Positions 1,188 to 59,773 of a DNA stretch of 64,000 nt are shown piece after piece (position 1 is the first letter of the stretch; the number at the start of each line of letters is the position of its first letter). The DNA lies in assembly GCA_951406725.2 (NCBI GenBank), contig OX597827.1, positions 73,036,001-73,100,000 of the forward strand, read 5' to 3'. The DNA is from Octopus vulgaris. Lineage: Eukaryota. The notes below the pieces were generated by a model. The model was given only the letters and a program-made list of their open reading frames with translations. It searched no databases and was not told the origin of the DNA. Both the position numbers and the translations under genes were made by a program.

Positions 1188-1529
1188 ATACAAATAAATG
1201 AAAGAATGGAGTTGAACGACGATTTAACAAAATTCCTTAATTCTCGACACATGTTTCGAAGGCTGCATATTCCTAATTTCGAAGGAATAAGGGGTGCATT
1301 ATGCTGCCTTCTCATCAGGAAAAACAAGGAACTTATGTCAGCATCAAGATGAACAAAAACTTTTAGATGACTGCCCACACAGAGCCCATAGCGATAATCC
1401 TGATGAGAAGGCGGCATAATGCACCCCTTATTCCTTCGAATTAGGAATATGCAGCCTTCGAAACATGTGTCGAGAATAAAGGCATTTTGTTAAATCGTCG
1501 TTCAACTCCATTCTTTCATTTATTTGTAT
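1188..1529. repeat. Long inverted repeat (arms 1188-1320 and 1398-1529) with a hammerhead motif in each arm
   Basis: Arms are near-perfect reverse complements with a ~77-nt spacer; abuts (TA)n. Confidence 0.92.
1395..1480 (+). ncRNA. Type I hammerhead ribozyme motif (mirror copy on minus strand ~1235-1329)
   Basis: CTGATGA 1400-1406, stem II gaaggcggcata/tatgcagccttc, GAAA 1460-1463, minimal stem III c-atgt-g, GTC triplet 1469-1471; stem I is better paired in the minus-strand copy (ttttc/gagaa). Confidence 0.75.
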
Positions 1530-1621
1530 ATGTATATATATATATATATATATATATATATATATATATATATATATATATATATATATATATATATATA
1601 TATATATACATATATATACAG

Positions 1622-2625
1622 CGGAGCCCCGCAGAGTACTGTGCTGGATCCACTTCTTTTTATAGTCTATATAAATGACATTGCAGATGACTCTAAGCTC
1701 CAGTCATTAAGGGAGCATATGATCGAACAATGCTTCAATCGGACCAATGCGCAGTAACCCAGCGGGCACAAAAAACAATATGCATTTGAACGAAGAAAAA
1801 AAATTGATCTCATTCATTTTGGAAGAGAGAGTACACTCAAACAACCGTATACACTACGGTCGGGAGACCTACTTGAACCATCAGATAATATTAAAGACTT
1901 AGAAGTTACTGTCGACAGCAACTTTGGAGTGTGCACATCAACAAAAAAGTCGATATTGTCTGTAGAATGTGCTCATGGATCCTCAGAACTTTCCAATCTA
2001 GGGATCATGAAACCATCATCCTTCTCTTCTCCACATTCGCTAGGCCCCCACCTCGAATACTGCTGCCCATCGTGGTCCCCCTACAAAAAACAAGACATAA
2101 TGAGGATCGAAGCACCACAAAGATCAATCACACACAAAAAAATAAATGGAATGATGGGACTTGATTATTGGTCTCGACTTAGAACCGTTGAAGCTCTATT
2201 CTCTGCAACGCCACCGTGAACGATAATTATTTGCACCATGTGGAAAATATTTCACCAATATTATCCAAATGATATCGGTATTATGTTTACAATTCACACA
2301 AGACTAGCATCACCCCCCCCTCTGTGCAATGCGTCGCCTACAAAGGTCGAGATCATATCACATAAGAACATTGCGAAACTATTTCTGCACTGCAAATGGT
2401 CCTGGACTTTTCAATGTCATCCCCAAAGAAATTAAAGGAGAAAAAGACCCCTCAAAATTTCAAACGGTACAAATTCCTCAAGGGAAAATGCCGGATAAAC
2501 CACCTACACCTGGTTACGTCTCAACCAACAACAACTCTCAGCTTGAGTGGTCAGTGGTGTACCGAAATAATTAACTAAGAGACTTTTCCAGGTGGTGCTA
2601 TTAAGTTAGTCATAGCCTTGGCCGA
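1622..2625 (+). mobile_element. 5'-truncated, frameshifted CR1/L2-group LINE (RT C-terminus and 3' UTR)
   Basis: [21 protein letters not shown] (GVPQGSVLGPLLF motif), PHLEYCCPSWSPYKKQDI..IE.PQR, homologous to 54491-55055; starts in (TA)n. Confidence 0.85.
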
Positions 2626-3572
2626 TAATACATACATACATACATACATACATACATACATACATACATACATACATACATACATATATACGTATATATA
2701 TATATATATATATATATATATATATATATATATATATATATATATATATATATATATATATATTTATATATATATATATTATATATATATATATATATAT
2801 ATATATATATATATATATATATATATATATATATAAACTTACTTGGAAGATATATATATATATATATATATATATATATATATATATAGGTAAAAGTTAC
2901 TTGGAAGATATAAATATATATATATGACATTACCAAACTGTTCATTGCAATCGCTAATATTCTTCTGTAGGGTGAGAAAATCTCTGATCAGTCACTGAAC
3001 CTCTACAAACCTCAAGTGCAGCCGTATCAGATTAGAGTAATGCTCTCATAAATGGGACAGTGTTGCTGTGCAAATACACACATACACACACATGAATATA
3101 TATATATATATATATGTATATACGAGCAAAACGCCCCCCGACTAATGGACGGTGCTGAATCATATCTGCTGAGGAAAAAGCAATCAATGTTTTTTTTTCA
3201 TTAAGAAATAATTAAGCATGCCTCTATTTCAATAAAATTTTGGGTTTTGTTAAACGAAGTTAAGGCAAGAAAGAAAACTTCTTGAGAAACCAAATAGTCT
3301 TTCCTTCCTTCATGCCAAGTTTGAGGAAAATATCTCTTTTGCATCTTACTTTTTTGGTCTCTTAAATATACTGCATTTTGTGGCATTATTTCAAGCCAGC
3401 CGGCTTTTTTTGCGCAAATTGCACGTGAATTTTTCTCGCGTACGCGTTGTATCGGTCGCAACAGCTGATGTACTTGCACATACAAATGCGCGTTTCCACG
3501 GCTTTATCGATCGCATTCTCACCTGGAATCGATTTTTGTAATTTTTTCAAGACTTATACACGCCCTGATACC

Positions 3573-3803
3573 TATTTCTTTATTACCCACTAGGGGCTAA
3601 ACACAGAGGGGACAAACAAGGACAGACATAGGTATTAAGTCGATTACATCGACCCCAGTGCGTAACTGGTACTTAATTTATCGACCCCGAAAGGATGAAA
3701 GGCAAAGTCGACCTCGGCGGAATTTGAACTCACAACGTAACGCAGACGAAATATCGCTAAGCATTTCGCCCGGCGTGCTAACGTTTCTGCCAGCTCGCCG
3801 CCT
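3573..3803 (-). mobile_element. tRNA-derived SINE family A, full length with 17-bp TSD
   Basis: A box gagctggcagaaacgtta, B box gagttcaaattcc, central gcctttcatcctttcggggtcgataaattaagtacc (resembles Meta-type SINE domain); TSD atacacgccctgatacc at 3556-3572 and 3821-3837. Other copies: 5337-5740 (+, dimer), 19640-19868, 22157-22375, 26893-27055, 29078-29290, 31955-32165, 48830-49225, 51375-51555, 53030-53400. Confidence 0.9.
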
Positions 3804-3939
3804 TATGATACCGTCTTATGATACACGCCCTGATACCGTCGGTATCTACATATCTGAGCGCAATCAGATAGAGGATGCCCGAGATCCTAGAAGACACACA
3901 CAGAGACAGATAGAACGGATTTTGTATAATATATATACA

Positions 3940-57062: not shown

Positions 57063-57102
57063 CCTGTTACTCTGAGTTTCACGTTCCCGTTCGTCGGACA
57101 GT
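57063..57102 (-). ncRNA. Second copy of the CCGAYGA hammerhead variant family
   Basis: Minus strand ctgt CCGACGA acg-GGAA-cgt GAAA ctcagaGTA acag; flanks homologous to 59628-59690. Confidence 0.65.
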
Positions 57103-57379
57103 TTATATATATATCTACATATATACTGATATATACCTATATATACGCATATGCATATATACATATATATACCTATATACATATATATACACATCCATCA
57201 ATATATATATATATATATATATATATATATATATATGTATATATATATTTATATATCTTTATGTACGCATTCATAAATAATCCATATATATTTATATGTA
57301 TATGTGTATTTATGTGTTGTTTAAGTTATTTTTAAAATATGAGAAACAGAGTCTGTCATTAAGAACTTAGTTAAAAACA

Positions 57380-58080
57380 ACTTCTAGGGTCTTACACCTA
57401 TCTGCTAATGAAAAATTCTCAAAAAGCTGTTTATAATACGTGGTTTTAAAATCGATCACAAATCCGAAACATACGTAGAAACATTAGTTCTGATAACCCA
57501 ATTAGTAAATTTCTACTGAAGTTGCAGTATAACAGTTGCAACTTCAATAGCTTGAGTAATATTGACACAGTCATTACGAAGCACTTTACAGAAAACACAA
57601 ATGCTGCAAACTGTTCAGCGTAATACTATCAATATTACCTTGTTCAAAGATTTCCCGCTCCAACAAATCTCAGCTATACAAATACCTAACATACTGTTTT
57701 AGCGGACAATGTAAGTGTCTCAAAGCTGACTCATTCTCCATACACTCAAAATGCTTTATTAAGGATATTGTCTATCAATAAACTGTGTAGGTAAAGTAAA
57801 CTTCAAAGTCCTACAATCGCTTGCAATTGAACGATTTGTAACTCCAATACCCACATCTTTAGAAATCCAACAAATCTAATCAGAAATCACTAGCTTCATG
57901 CCTCAGAAACTAAAAACCTTGAAAATTCTTGGAATACCAAAAACCATGCAAACCTTGTACCACAGAAAGCCTGGAAAATTTCTTTTGCGCGATTTCTTTT
58001 GTGAACAAAATTCCGAATAACTTTGATCTTGCATGCACAAAATCTTTAAAACACATAAATTTAAAAAAAATACCTACTAA
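57380..58080 (+). pseudogene. Heavily decayed LRR-coding relic
   Basis: LxxLxL-type fragments in shifting frames: RVLHLSAN (57386), VETLVL/DNPI (57475), VLADN (~57696), LLRILSINK (57756), VLQSLAIE (~57808), LKTLKILG (57910), SLKHINLKK (58043). Confidence 0.45.
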
Positions 58081-59618
58081 CTACCCGGTTCGGTAATGAA
58101 TAAGCTAGTCTACTCTTTCTAATGTACCAGCCATCATTTATTATTTCGTTTTATTATGTGTGGGTATTGGTCTCTTATTTCTAATCTTATATATTCTAAA
58201 TCTTACACCCCACATATCACTACTTCTCTCGTATCTTCCAATTTTCATCACAACTATAGATTTCACCAGTTTTACTCATAACTATATTTTCTTAATAGTT
58301 AACTATTACATCGCTCCCATCAACTACAGTTCCGTTAATAACATGTGTTTTAAAATCCTTTTTCTCCTGTTTTCTTATTTCTCTTTCTTCCTACATTCTT
58401 TTACAATGTATAATATACAACTTTTGTAAGTATTTGTACTCTTGCTTATACTACTGTTCACCTCTTATTTACAATATTCTCTTTTAACATTTACGGTGAC
58501 AAACCTTAAGGGTCTGATATAGTTTAAATGCAAATTAGGTATCACTGGTTTCTGTCATTCTCATTAAATAATTTAATTACAATGAATTAATTACTCGTAT
58601 CAATGTTGTAATTGTTCGTTACATCTATATCCTATCGTCCCCTTATATATATTTATTCTTATCTTTATCGTTAATAAAACAAAAACTTTTATCATACCTT
58701 ATCATACAAGGTAATATTATTTAATGATTTTTTTTAAAATTCGAAAGCTTAAAAATTAAAATTAAAATTAAAACTTGTAGCTTTGGTTTACAACCCTTTT
58801 CTCTGCTTAACACAATGTGACATAATGTAAAAGAAAAATCGTAAAAGACCTGAAAATTATAAATTCGGATTACAATTTGTTATTCTGTTTCAGTAACTGA
58901 ATCCTTTAATTCTTTTATTGATTTTGATATTATTAAGTAAAGCCAATAATACAGATTTAATCTGTATACTATGATCCTTAAAGCATCTCTTTAACTTTGA
59001 TTCTAGTTCTTTCTGACTTAGAATTTTTATTACTAATCTTTTTCATACTTTAACCCTTTCACACATACAAACCATTTTTCATTCAAGTTACTTGATATAG
59101 CCATACTCAATCTAATGGTTTGATTCTCTCCTCTCGATGATGTTGACTGATAAATTTAATTAGCACCATCTTAAAAAACTGATCGTTCTTTCACTCATTC
59201 ATTTATTTGATTCATTTGGTTGTTTTTGTTTTGTTTTTTTATCTAACAATCCTCCTCCTTCTTCCATTTATCTCTCATCTCTTTTTAAAATTGTCCCAAT
59301 GCAATGACGCCATCAGGTCTCTCTCTCTGTTATCCTAAAAAACACAGTCCTCTCTAATTTGATGCGAAATTCTCCATTCACCTCATCTCCTACTCAATTT
59401 GTGCTGCACCACATTTTTTACACCCCAAGTAATTCAAAGCTTACTGACAAACCAACTGGCAGACAAATCGCACAACTAATCTTGATCCTATAATAATTTT
59501 TACCTTATGACGTATATCTATCTATCTATCTATCTATCTATCTATCTATCTATCTATCTATCTATCTATCTATCTATCTATCTATCTATCTATCTATCTA
59601 TCTATCTATCTATATATC

Positions 59619-59773
59619 CTTTATTTAAAGCAGCAGAAAATTCAACAAAACCTGTTACTCTGAGTTTCCCGTTGCCGTTCATCGGACAATTTTTGCTAGA
59701 AACTGTCCGATGAACGGCAACGGGAAACTCAGAGTAACAGGTTTTGTTGAATTTTCTGCTGCTTTAAATAAAG
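59619..59773. repeat. Palindrome, 70-bp perfect arms with 15-nt loop, hammerhead variant in each arm
   Basis: 59619-59688 is the reverse complement of 59704-59773. Confidence 0.95.
59703..59740 (+). ncRNA. Hammerhead variant with CCGATGA core
   Basis: Stem I ctgt/acag, CCGATGA 59707-59713, stem II cg-GCAA-cg, GAAA 59724-59727, stem III ct-cag-ag, GTA 59734-59736. Confidence 0.65.

Follow-up and report, generated by a model that had tools for sequence, protein, structure and literature searches.

What are the many short, often palindromic, ribozyme-like sequences that abut (TA)n tracts in a 64,000-nt stretch of the Octopus vulgaris genome (contig OX597827.1 of assembly GCA_951406725.2, positions 73,036,001 to 73,100,000, forward strand; hereafter the window), and how did they come to be arranged head to head? 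Very probably, in our judgement, they are type I hammerhead folds that lie within the terminal repeats of 5′-truncated copies of Penelope-like elements (PLEs) inserted into (TA)n, and the palindromes arose by priming at two sites and on two strands. Longer copies elsewhere in the genome run into open reading frames (ORFs) for reverse transcriptase (RT) and a GIY-YIG endonuclease (EN), so that the short pieces would be 5′-truncated copies of autonomous families. In addition, paired arms almost always end at two different fixed sites.

Hammerhead motifs in the window

The ribozyme-shaped motifs in the window are real. A strict type I descriptor (CYGANGA, stems I–III, GAAA and UH), which follows the generic hammerhead core pattern and the standard numbering of its positions, matches the window six times, at −1318, +14399, −39060, −40579, +54029 and −57097. 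In 100 dinucleotide shuffles that preserve microsatellites (masked over 8371 of 64,000 nt, 13% of the window), the mean was 0.04 and the maximum 1, so in this comparison, set beforehand, the motif frequency is far above chance. Allowing one core mismatch gives eight matches against a mean of 0.75 and a maximum of 2 in 20 shuffles, the two additions being +56908 and −22938. The latter (22842–22938, − strand) has a CAGAAGA core and an 8-bp stem III and may be a chance match, given the 0.75 expected. An e-value scan of the window with Rfam returned no hammerhead family among the 150 listed of 338 matches, the listed ones being microRNA noise driven by microsatellites, and a repeat search of the whole window returned nothing beyond microsatellite noise.

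Annotation by hand yields 15 motifs at 12 insertions, in 10 sequence groups, with the labels A–I, C2 and, for a decayed relative of C2, C3. The parts are as follows.

1051–1398, − strand: group A tailed arm, the 3′ end of a putative Hydra-clade PLE; core starts at 1318; predicted cleavage after 1246; tail of ~150 nt reaching (TA)n
1398–1529, + strand: group A short arm; core at 1400; stops at the short site before (TA)n
14384–14589, + strand: group H element end; core CCGATGA at 14399; near-palindromic stem III of 12 nt; predicted cleavage after 14449
18428–18562, − strand: tailed arm of group B; core at 18558, with cleavage expected after 18520; AAGCTT word of the junction at 18560–18565
18563–18632, + strand: short arm of group B; core at 18567, with cleavage expected after 18605
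18782–18845, + strand: C3, a decayed relative of C2; core at 18814 intact; no stem I (duplex +3.7 kcal/mol); copy probably dead
20025–20132, + strand: end of a group I element; core at 20044; in this copy the GAAA box is decayed
31164–31290, + strand: group D element end; core at 31177; stem III ACAGCTGT
38932–39130, − strand: C2 element end, single arm; core at 39060; minimal hammerhead of CCGACGA, an extra A, GAGC/GCTY and ACGT
40472–40652, − strand: group E short arm with a complete hammerhead; core at 40579; 7-bp stem II; stem III ACGATCGT; predicted cleavage after 40504
40653–40865, + strand: group E tailed arm, truncated within stem II; CUGANGA half missing
53856–54252, + strand: group G element end with tail; core at 54029; 10-bp stem II; predicted cleavage after 54124
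56834–57030, + strand: group C element end (putative Neptune-type lineage), single arm; minimal hammerhead with core CTGTAGA at 56908
57042–57104, − strand: group F single short arm; core at 57097; predicted cleavage after 57068
59614–59699, − strand: group F short arm; core at 59685
59700–59848, + strand: group F tailed arm; core at 59707; tail of ~70 nt reaching (TA)n

A preliminary description of this DNA had named about nine loci in about six families. The type I fold is present at all nine, several of them with defects, but the insertions at 14399 (H), 20044 (I) and 54029 (G) had been overlooked; the count of six families stands if 18814, 39060 and 56908 are taken as one related group. 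Its left limit of 1188 belongs to a real locus, that of group A, which extends further left to 1051. Four loci are head-to-head inverted repeats, as it had said: A (1051–1529), B (18428–18632), E (40472–40865) and F (59614–59848).

The exact CYGANGA core is present at seven of the nine named loci. The exceptions are 31177, where CTTATGA carries a G5-to-U change private to this copy (17 of 30 group D loci read CTGATGA), and 56908, where CTGTAGA carries an A6-to-U change common to 28 of 30 group C loci. A U4-to-C change occurs in groups F, G, H and C2, and U17 in several groups. Further defects are a 5′ strand of stem I lost at the inversion junction (+1400), a U·U closing pair in stem II (group B) and an A·G closing mismatch (59685 and 59707). 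Across the ten groups, whose stem sequences are unrelated, pairing and core are kept, as judged by inspection, with stems that covary.

Parent elements and the A6U core

That no RT/GIY-YIG ORF is recognisable in the window holds: a search of the 64 kb for a PLE ORF remnant found none, and the only RT remnant is a decayed long interspersed element (LINE) fragment at 1620–2180, unrelated to PLEs, which matched a CR1-type query (E = 2e-12) and which we take to be of CR1 type on the motif likeness of that query. The assembly that contains the window has 2.8 Gb in 227 contigs, and the best 20–30 loci per group were fetched from it. Every group queried, which is all but C3, proved to be repeated. 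Candidate copies at first look, all lower bounds, number at least 1891 for A, 448 for B, 2381 for C, 2533 for C2, 882 for D, 962 for E, 2222 for G, 1395 for H and 614 for I, and at least 76 and at least 252 for F with two queries. For group B, a DNA query with the tail alone gave no matches despite the abundance of the group and was replaced by a 38-nt pattern, which has 891 exact matches genome-wide against none for its reversed control.

Longer genomic copies of these groups bear out the Penelope-like origin that had been proposed for the hammerheads. Group A includes a GIY-YIG frame (L015) and RT-EN frames of 833 aa (L047, 2741–5239) and 804 aa (L049, 3903–6314), the order in L049 being tail, ORF, hammerhead, tail. 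An intact parent of group F (L308) reads pseudo-long terminal repeat (pLTR), tail, 727-aa frame, pLTR. EN or RT fragments lie in sense upstream of the hammerhead in E (L307), G (L312), I (L313), B (L306) and D (L426 and L427). No sense-strand PLE ORF was found in the H loci (20, and 4 extended) or the C2 loci (20, and 2 extended). The preliminary description had called the elements non-autonomous and had drawn a parallel with retrozymes; for most groups neither reading is supported, as A, F and the C lineage are contiguous with RT and GIY-YIG ORFs, B, D, E, G and I have ORF fragments, and no head-to-tail array of short units was seen. H, C2 and C3 may be non-autonomous. Without head-to-tail tandem organisation, membership of the retrozymes fails.

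The closest protein relative of the group A ORF comes from an octopod, at 34% identity. A Pfam search missed the Hydra-type RT, and its GIY-YIG score fell below the cut-off; read directly, F has the Hydra-clade marks RWK and DKT, and A has RWL and DKT, the DKT replacing DKG. The EN of A, B, E and F lacks CCHH and has CxxC and CxH flanking its conserved residues E and N. A CxCx5C linker is complete in E (L307); one Cys is missing from it in L308 (F) and in the fragment L306 (B), whose frame is truncated there. Groups A, B, D–G and I appear to link to the Hydra clade, and C to a Neptune-type family. A Neptune-type EN beside the B copy L121 was considered as the parent of B and rejected as a separate neighbouring insertion. 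The long 3′ region of B (L306) is itself TA/TG-rich low-complexity sequence, with other PLE ends nested inside, so that B would spread microsatellite and may create new targets.

The C lineage differs in its core. It belongs with a young Neptune-type family in which all 150 EN matches listed are 98–100% identical, frames reach 1214 aa, and a C-type motif lies 0.8–0.9 kb downstream in 30 of 30 EN-anchored loci. Specifically, two direct pLTRs flank a 1202-aa frame in L384, with RVT_1 (E = 2e-7) and a weak GIY-YIG match; direct reading finds DKG, a Cx4CxxC linker and CCHH in the EN, marks that do not separate Neptune from Nematis, and the ORF resembles, by eye only, the Neptune rows of a supplementary alignment. 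The near-identity of its copies suggests that this family (L384, L354–L383) is probably active now. Its 3′ untranslated region holds (CA)n and C/T-rich tracts of its own. The window copy represents a related older subfamily, 79% identical to the young family downstream of the motif. When the two are compared as chosen by flank and protein, the motif is 93% identical and the flanks 67% and 79%; other identity comparisons within the C lineage are constrained by the search pattern and count less.

With positions 6 and 7 left free, the Neptune-type motif is matched exactly 32,464 times in the 2.8 Gb, or roughly once every 90 kb. U6 is present in 18,129 of them, position 7 taking all four bases in these copies, and in 30 of 30 loci of the youngest sampled family. 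Dropping the 5′ anchor and keeping the canonical core gives 14,422 matches, and the reversed-pattern control is 0 for each of the three counts. The near-invariant A6 is kept in all groups except the C lineage. An alternative register for the C core, starting at U3, was rejected: stem II would be disrupted, and subfamilies A7 and G7 would not fit. The A6U core is predicted to cleave slowly: A6 changes give low hammerhead activity, and a natural A6C variant is reported to cleave at <0.1 per minute (PMC3088659). A literature search for reports of A6U hammerheads found no relevant paper, supplements with further motif variants being outside its reach. The variant en masse, beside the canonical-core sister group C2, which has G-C where C has C-G in stem I, offers a natural comparison.

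Paired ends and the probable origin of the palindromes

In the Hydra-type groups, both 3′ ends of a pair face outward into (TA)n. The adjacency to TA tracts noted in the preliminary description is borne out: (TA)3 lies within 16–24 nt of 267 of the 281 scored 3′ ends of groups A, B, E and F (rows that include a few repeated loci), against 6–9% of unmasked window positions. Among 100 listed group B matches, neighbours within 5 kb are head-to-head in 29 cases, tail-to-tail in one and on the same strand in none; the head-to-head gaps range from 5 to 4484 nt, with nine of the 29 sharing one spacing, at the AAGCTT word. The inverted terminal copies and the palindromic stem III favouring dimers, both anticipated, are likewise present.

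The 3′ ends of each group fall at two fixed sites, the short one and another ~70–150 nt further on (the tail), and the tail may be on either arm. One short and one tailed end are combined in 103 of 105 paired rows, and in 38 of 40 pairs from samples anchored on neither tail nor junction (binomial p = 7e-12 for 38/38 after two compound loci are set aside). The exceptions to the rule, L036 (short and short) and L089 (tailed and tailed), are both compound on inspection; L133 and L136/L137, compound as well, were scored short and tailed, and L053 is the same locus as L207. The combination of one short and one tailed end suggests that the two cut target strands prime from different RT start sites. 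The template beyond both start sites is TA-like in 5′ copies of A, E and F. Within an insertion, the two arms carry the same subfamily allele in 65 of 70 site comparisons at 14 F loci, against 36–71% expected per site. Heterogeneous as they are, the junctions cluster immediately 5′ of the hammerhead, at short palindromic words such as AAGCTT (B) and CTAG (F); GATC and CATG are examples from A and E. Partial tandems of the pLTR, an inverted 5′-truncated copy and a one-ended tail are present in the longer loci (L049, L308 and L384).

These features fit a mechanism in which GIY-YIG would cut both strands of a self-complementary TA tract, as the published biochemistry of PLEs suggests, with the PLE protein presumably acting as a dimer. 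Each cut strand would prime RT at a different one of the two fixed internal start sites, and the two unfinished cDNAs would likely be joined at short complementary words, which would produce junction hotspots at palindromic words 5′ of the hammerhead. PAc, a PLE of Anolis, has been modelled as a dimer; on AT-rich DNA it cleaves both strands and extends them, with RT beginning at two internal sites, one on each side of the tail (PMC11167929). The predicted ribozymes would process tandem transcripts, chiefly by cleavage as RNA dimers that pair through the palindromic stem III. As monomer hairpins, the stems III are unstable (+0.4 to +2.6 kcal/mol, and impossible for ACGT), with the exception of B (−1.4); dimer duplexes reach −6 to −15 kcal/mol, and −1.7 for ACGT. 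PLE hammerheads are reported to cleave weakly as dimers (PMC4209133). The Neptune-type C lineage instead appears to start RT at a single site that is homologous to the target, and it makes direct repeats. The template of the young family reads TATATA at that site. C-type loci are mostly single-armed (26/30, 20/20 and 26/30).

Several observations pull against this account. The ORF links for B and D come from one or two fragmentary loci, and H, C2 and C3 have no ORF link, C2 and C3 resembling C in sequence. Group A lacks the Hydra CxCx5C linker and has an Asn-rich insert of ~100 aa in its place. Many loci are single-armed (21 of 30 E rows, for example); some elements exceed the 3-kb loci, others are simple truncations, and the sampling of best loci favours young copies. 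The concordance of arms cannot tell one RNA from two. In the published work on PAc, mutation of the hammerhead left insertion in vitro unaffected, no RNA-seq reads are described as ending at the cleavage site, and RT start sites are alike on both strands (PMC11167929). Finally, palindromic junctions are also predicted by self-priming fold-back, a route proposed for rotifer Penelope (PMC3846280).

That fold-back route, in which a single cDNA or antisense template primes itself at a palindromic word and so yields the inverted arm, would account for both the clustering of junctions at such words and the allele-concordant arms. We nevertheless hold it to be unlikely, since in a simple fold-back the first arm would be copied right to its end and the two ends should be equal, which leaves the short and tailed ends unexplained whichever arm is longer, as it does the non-palindromic junctions with spacers seen in most A copies. 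Still less probable, in our estimation, is that the short palindromes are self-contained non-autonomous units, either palindromic retrozymes or similar to miniature inverted-repeat transposable elements, copied from palindromic masters. Many B copies do share one 192-nt palindrome, as many F copies share one of 226 nt, and the common spacing of B pairs and the groups without an ORF link point the same way. The identical B and F sets, however, came from queries that span the junction; junction-free samples have many junctions and lengths, from 78 nt to 4.5 kb, and led us to reject masters for F and B. Furthermore, a single F junction is found on different subfamily backgrounds, with alleles that a full-length copy also carries (L230/L308), the tail may lie on either side, and tandem arrays were not seen.

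A different question is whether the folds are catalytic here at all. That they are non-catalytic and kept as structures for protein binding or RT positioning has, we think, a small but appreciable chance of being right: A6 is changed to U in thousands of copies including the youngest sampled family, the U4-to-C and U17 variants add to this, and cleavage is dispensable in vitro for PAc (PMC11167929) while changes of A6 lower activity (PMC3088659). On the other side, the rest of the core is fixed while N7, loop II and the flanks vary, ten groups with unrelated stems retain the catalytic core, the PAc hammerhead cleaves with protein (PMC11167929), and natural A6C (PMC3088659) and U4C variants keep some activity. 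Beyond the two-site, two-strand reading itself, we offer as a tentative conjecture, which may well be wrong, that such priming is obligate in Hydra-clade PLEs, with a different RT start site for each end of the cut TA tract and hence a short and a tailed end in every complete insertion, and that the A6U core of the most successful Neptune-type lineage in this genome, fixed across many diverged subfamilies and ~18,000 copies, is still selected for, whether it works as a slow or protein-assisted ribozyme or serves RT binding as a non-catalytic fold. To chance matches or assembly artefacts, such as collapsed palindromes in microsatellite DNA, we give practically no credence: although microsatellite makes up a good part of the window and L133 looks disordered, the excess over shuffled sequence, the reversed controls of zero against 891, 32,464, 14,422 and 18,129 matches, and arms that end at different reproducible sites are all unlike an artefact.

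Mirror duplications around (TA)n that include flanking DNA occur at L279–L281, L036 and L397/L398 and suggest secondary rearrangement or assembly error. If transcribed, the A, B, E and F palindromes would give RNA hairpins of 60–180 bp, possible substrates for A-to-I editing or small-RNA pathways.

Relation to known elements

The Hydra clade of C-terminal EN+ PLEs is known for hammerheads and a (TA)n preference, and an octopus family, Hydra-1_Obim, has been catalogued in it (Craig et al. 2021, PMC8557442); the inverted copy and the one-ended tail are known for PLEs from the same source. The Hydra-type groups described here share with Hydra-1_Obim, Hydra-2_Amil and Penelope-n_HM a short single ORF, RW(K), DKT, the absence of CCHH, CxxC/CxH around E and N, a pLTR whose canonical type I hammerhead has a palindromic stem III, insertion into (TA)n, an inverted 5′-truncated copy and a one-ended tail. 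By eye, the group I ORF closely resembles that of Hydra-1_Obim, and stems I and III of F are those of Hydra-2_aMil (ctgt/acag; actc-n-gagt-a). They differ in number, at least seven groups here against the one octopus family listed in PMC8557442, in tail length, ~70–150 nt against the 30–40 nt quoted, and in some long stems II, with 54–77 nt between boxes. The CxCx5C linker has been proposed to aid (TA)n targeting in this clade (PMC8557442); group A lacks it, yet 59 of its 62 scored ends adjoin (TA)n. The Asn-rich insert of group A recalls the Asn-rich inserts of rotifer Penelope.

For PLEs in general, hammerheads in pLTRs, opposite-strand pairs 100–700 bp apart and thousands of solo truncated copies have been described (PMC4209133). 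The C lineage shares with the Neptune PLEs that carry minimal hammerheads (Cervera and De la Pena 2014, PMC4209133) CUGANGA with one extra nucleotide, a G10.1-C11.1 pair, a palindromic ACGU replacing stem III, DKG, the Cx4CxxC linker, CCHH, direct pLTRs and thousands of solo motifs. It differs in the A6-to-U change in over half of the exact matches, and in having ~32,000 copies of one motif where 2,000–9,000 minimal hammerheads per genome are reported (PMC4209133). With the Poseidon element PAc (Frangieh et al. 2024, PMC11167929), the Hydra-type groups have in common two internal RT starts bracketing the tail, an AT-rich target and extension of both strands. The octopus genomic copies, however, couple the two sites one per arm, and the template after both sites is TA-like, whereas PAc initiation is neither strand-dependent nor homologous to the target (PMC11167929). 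Metazoan non-LTR retrozymes (PMC7229834; bioRxiv 10.64898/2026.07.22.740005) have the type I hammerhead, a dimer-type stem III and a proposed PLE ancestry; they are head-to-tail tandem units of 150–450 bp without an ORF, in contrast to the dispersed single or head-to-head truncations of ORF-bearing elements seen here.

These groups are thus new members of a known PLE class, and repeat libraries may perhaps already hold them. A total of 31 recently active Penelope-like families are counted in an octopus annotation whose main text does not appear to mention ribozymes (PMC13282606). A literature search found no report of a strand-coupled tail rule, of twin priming in PLEs or of a cephalopod hammerhead survey, with Repbase, Dfam and most subscription papers beyond its reach. 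The new details, as far as our literature searches go, are the coupling of short and tailed ends in the palindromes and the A6U variant en masse; hammerheads in PLE pLTRs, inverted copies, tails and the (TA)n bias are published. The annotation is ordinary, and its value is as a test bed for head-to-head PLE insertion and for the role of the hammerhead: the genome offers thousands of young copies that follow the short-and-tailed rule near strictly, and intact frames of two clades with opposite architectures, L308 (Hydra) and L384 (Neptune-type).

Other sequences in the window touch on the same elements. The group C and group F copies at 56834–57104 lie tail-to-tail on one short TA tract, and repeated insertion into the same TA tract is frequent among fetched loci. 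A small perfect hairpin at 20003–20037, at the 5′ edge of the group I copy, is probably a very short inverted arm. A copy of a common SINE-like repeat at 51933 (− strand), present at many loci and adjoining TA tracts, has CTGATGA followed by GAAA boxes without convincing stems. A further short repeat family that reaches (TA)n, at 16864, 34049 and 52281, with a similar copy at 55499, has CTGAAGA or CTGATGA followed by a GGCTTCGAATG box; it resembles another hammerhead-related PLE end with an altered GAAA box and is also found in L004, L306 and L384.

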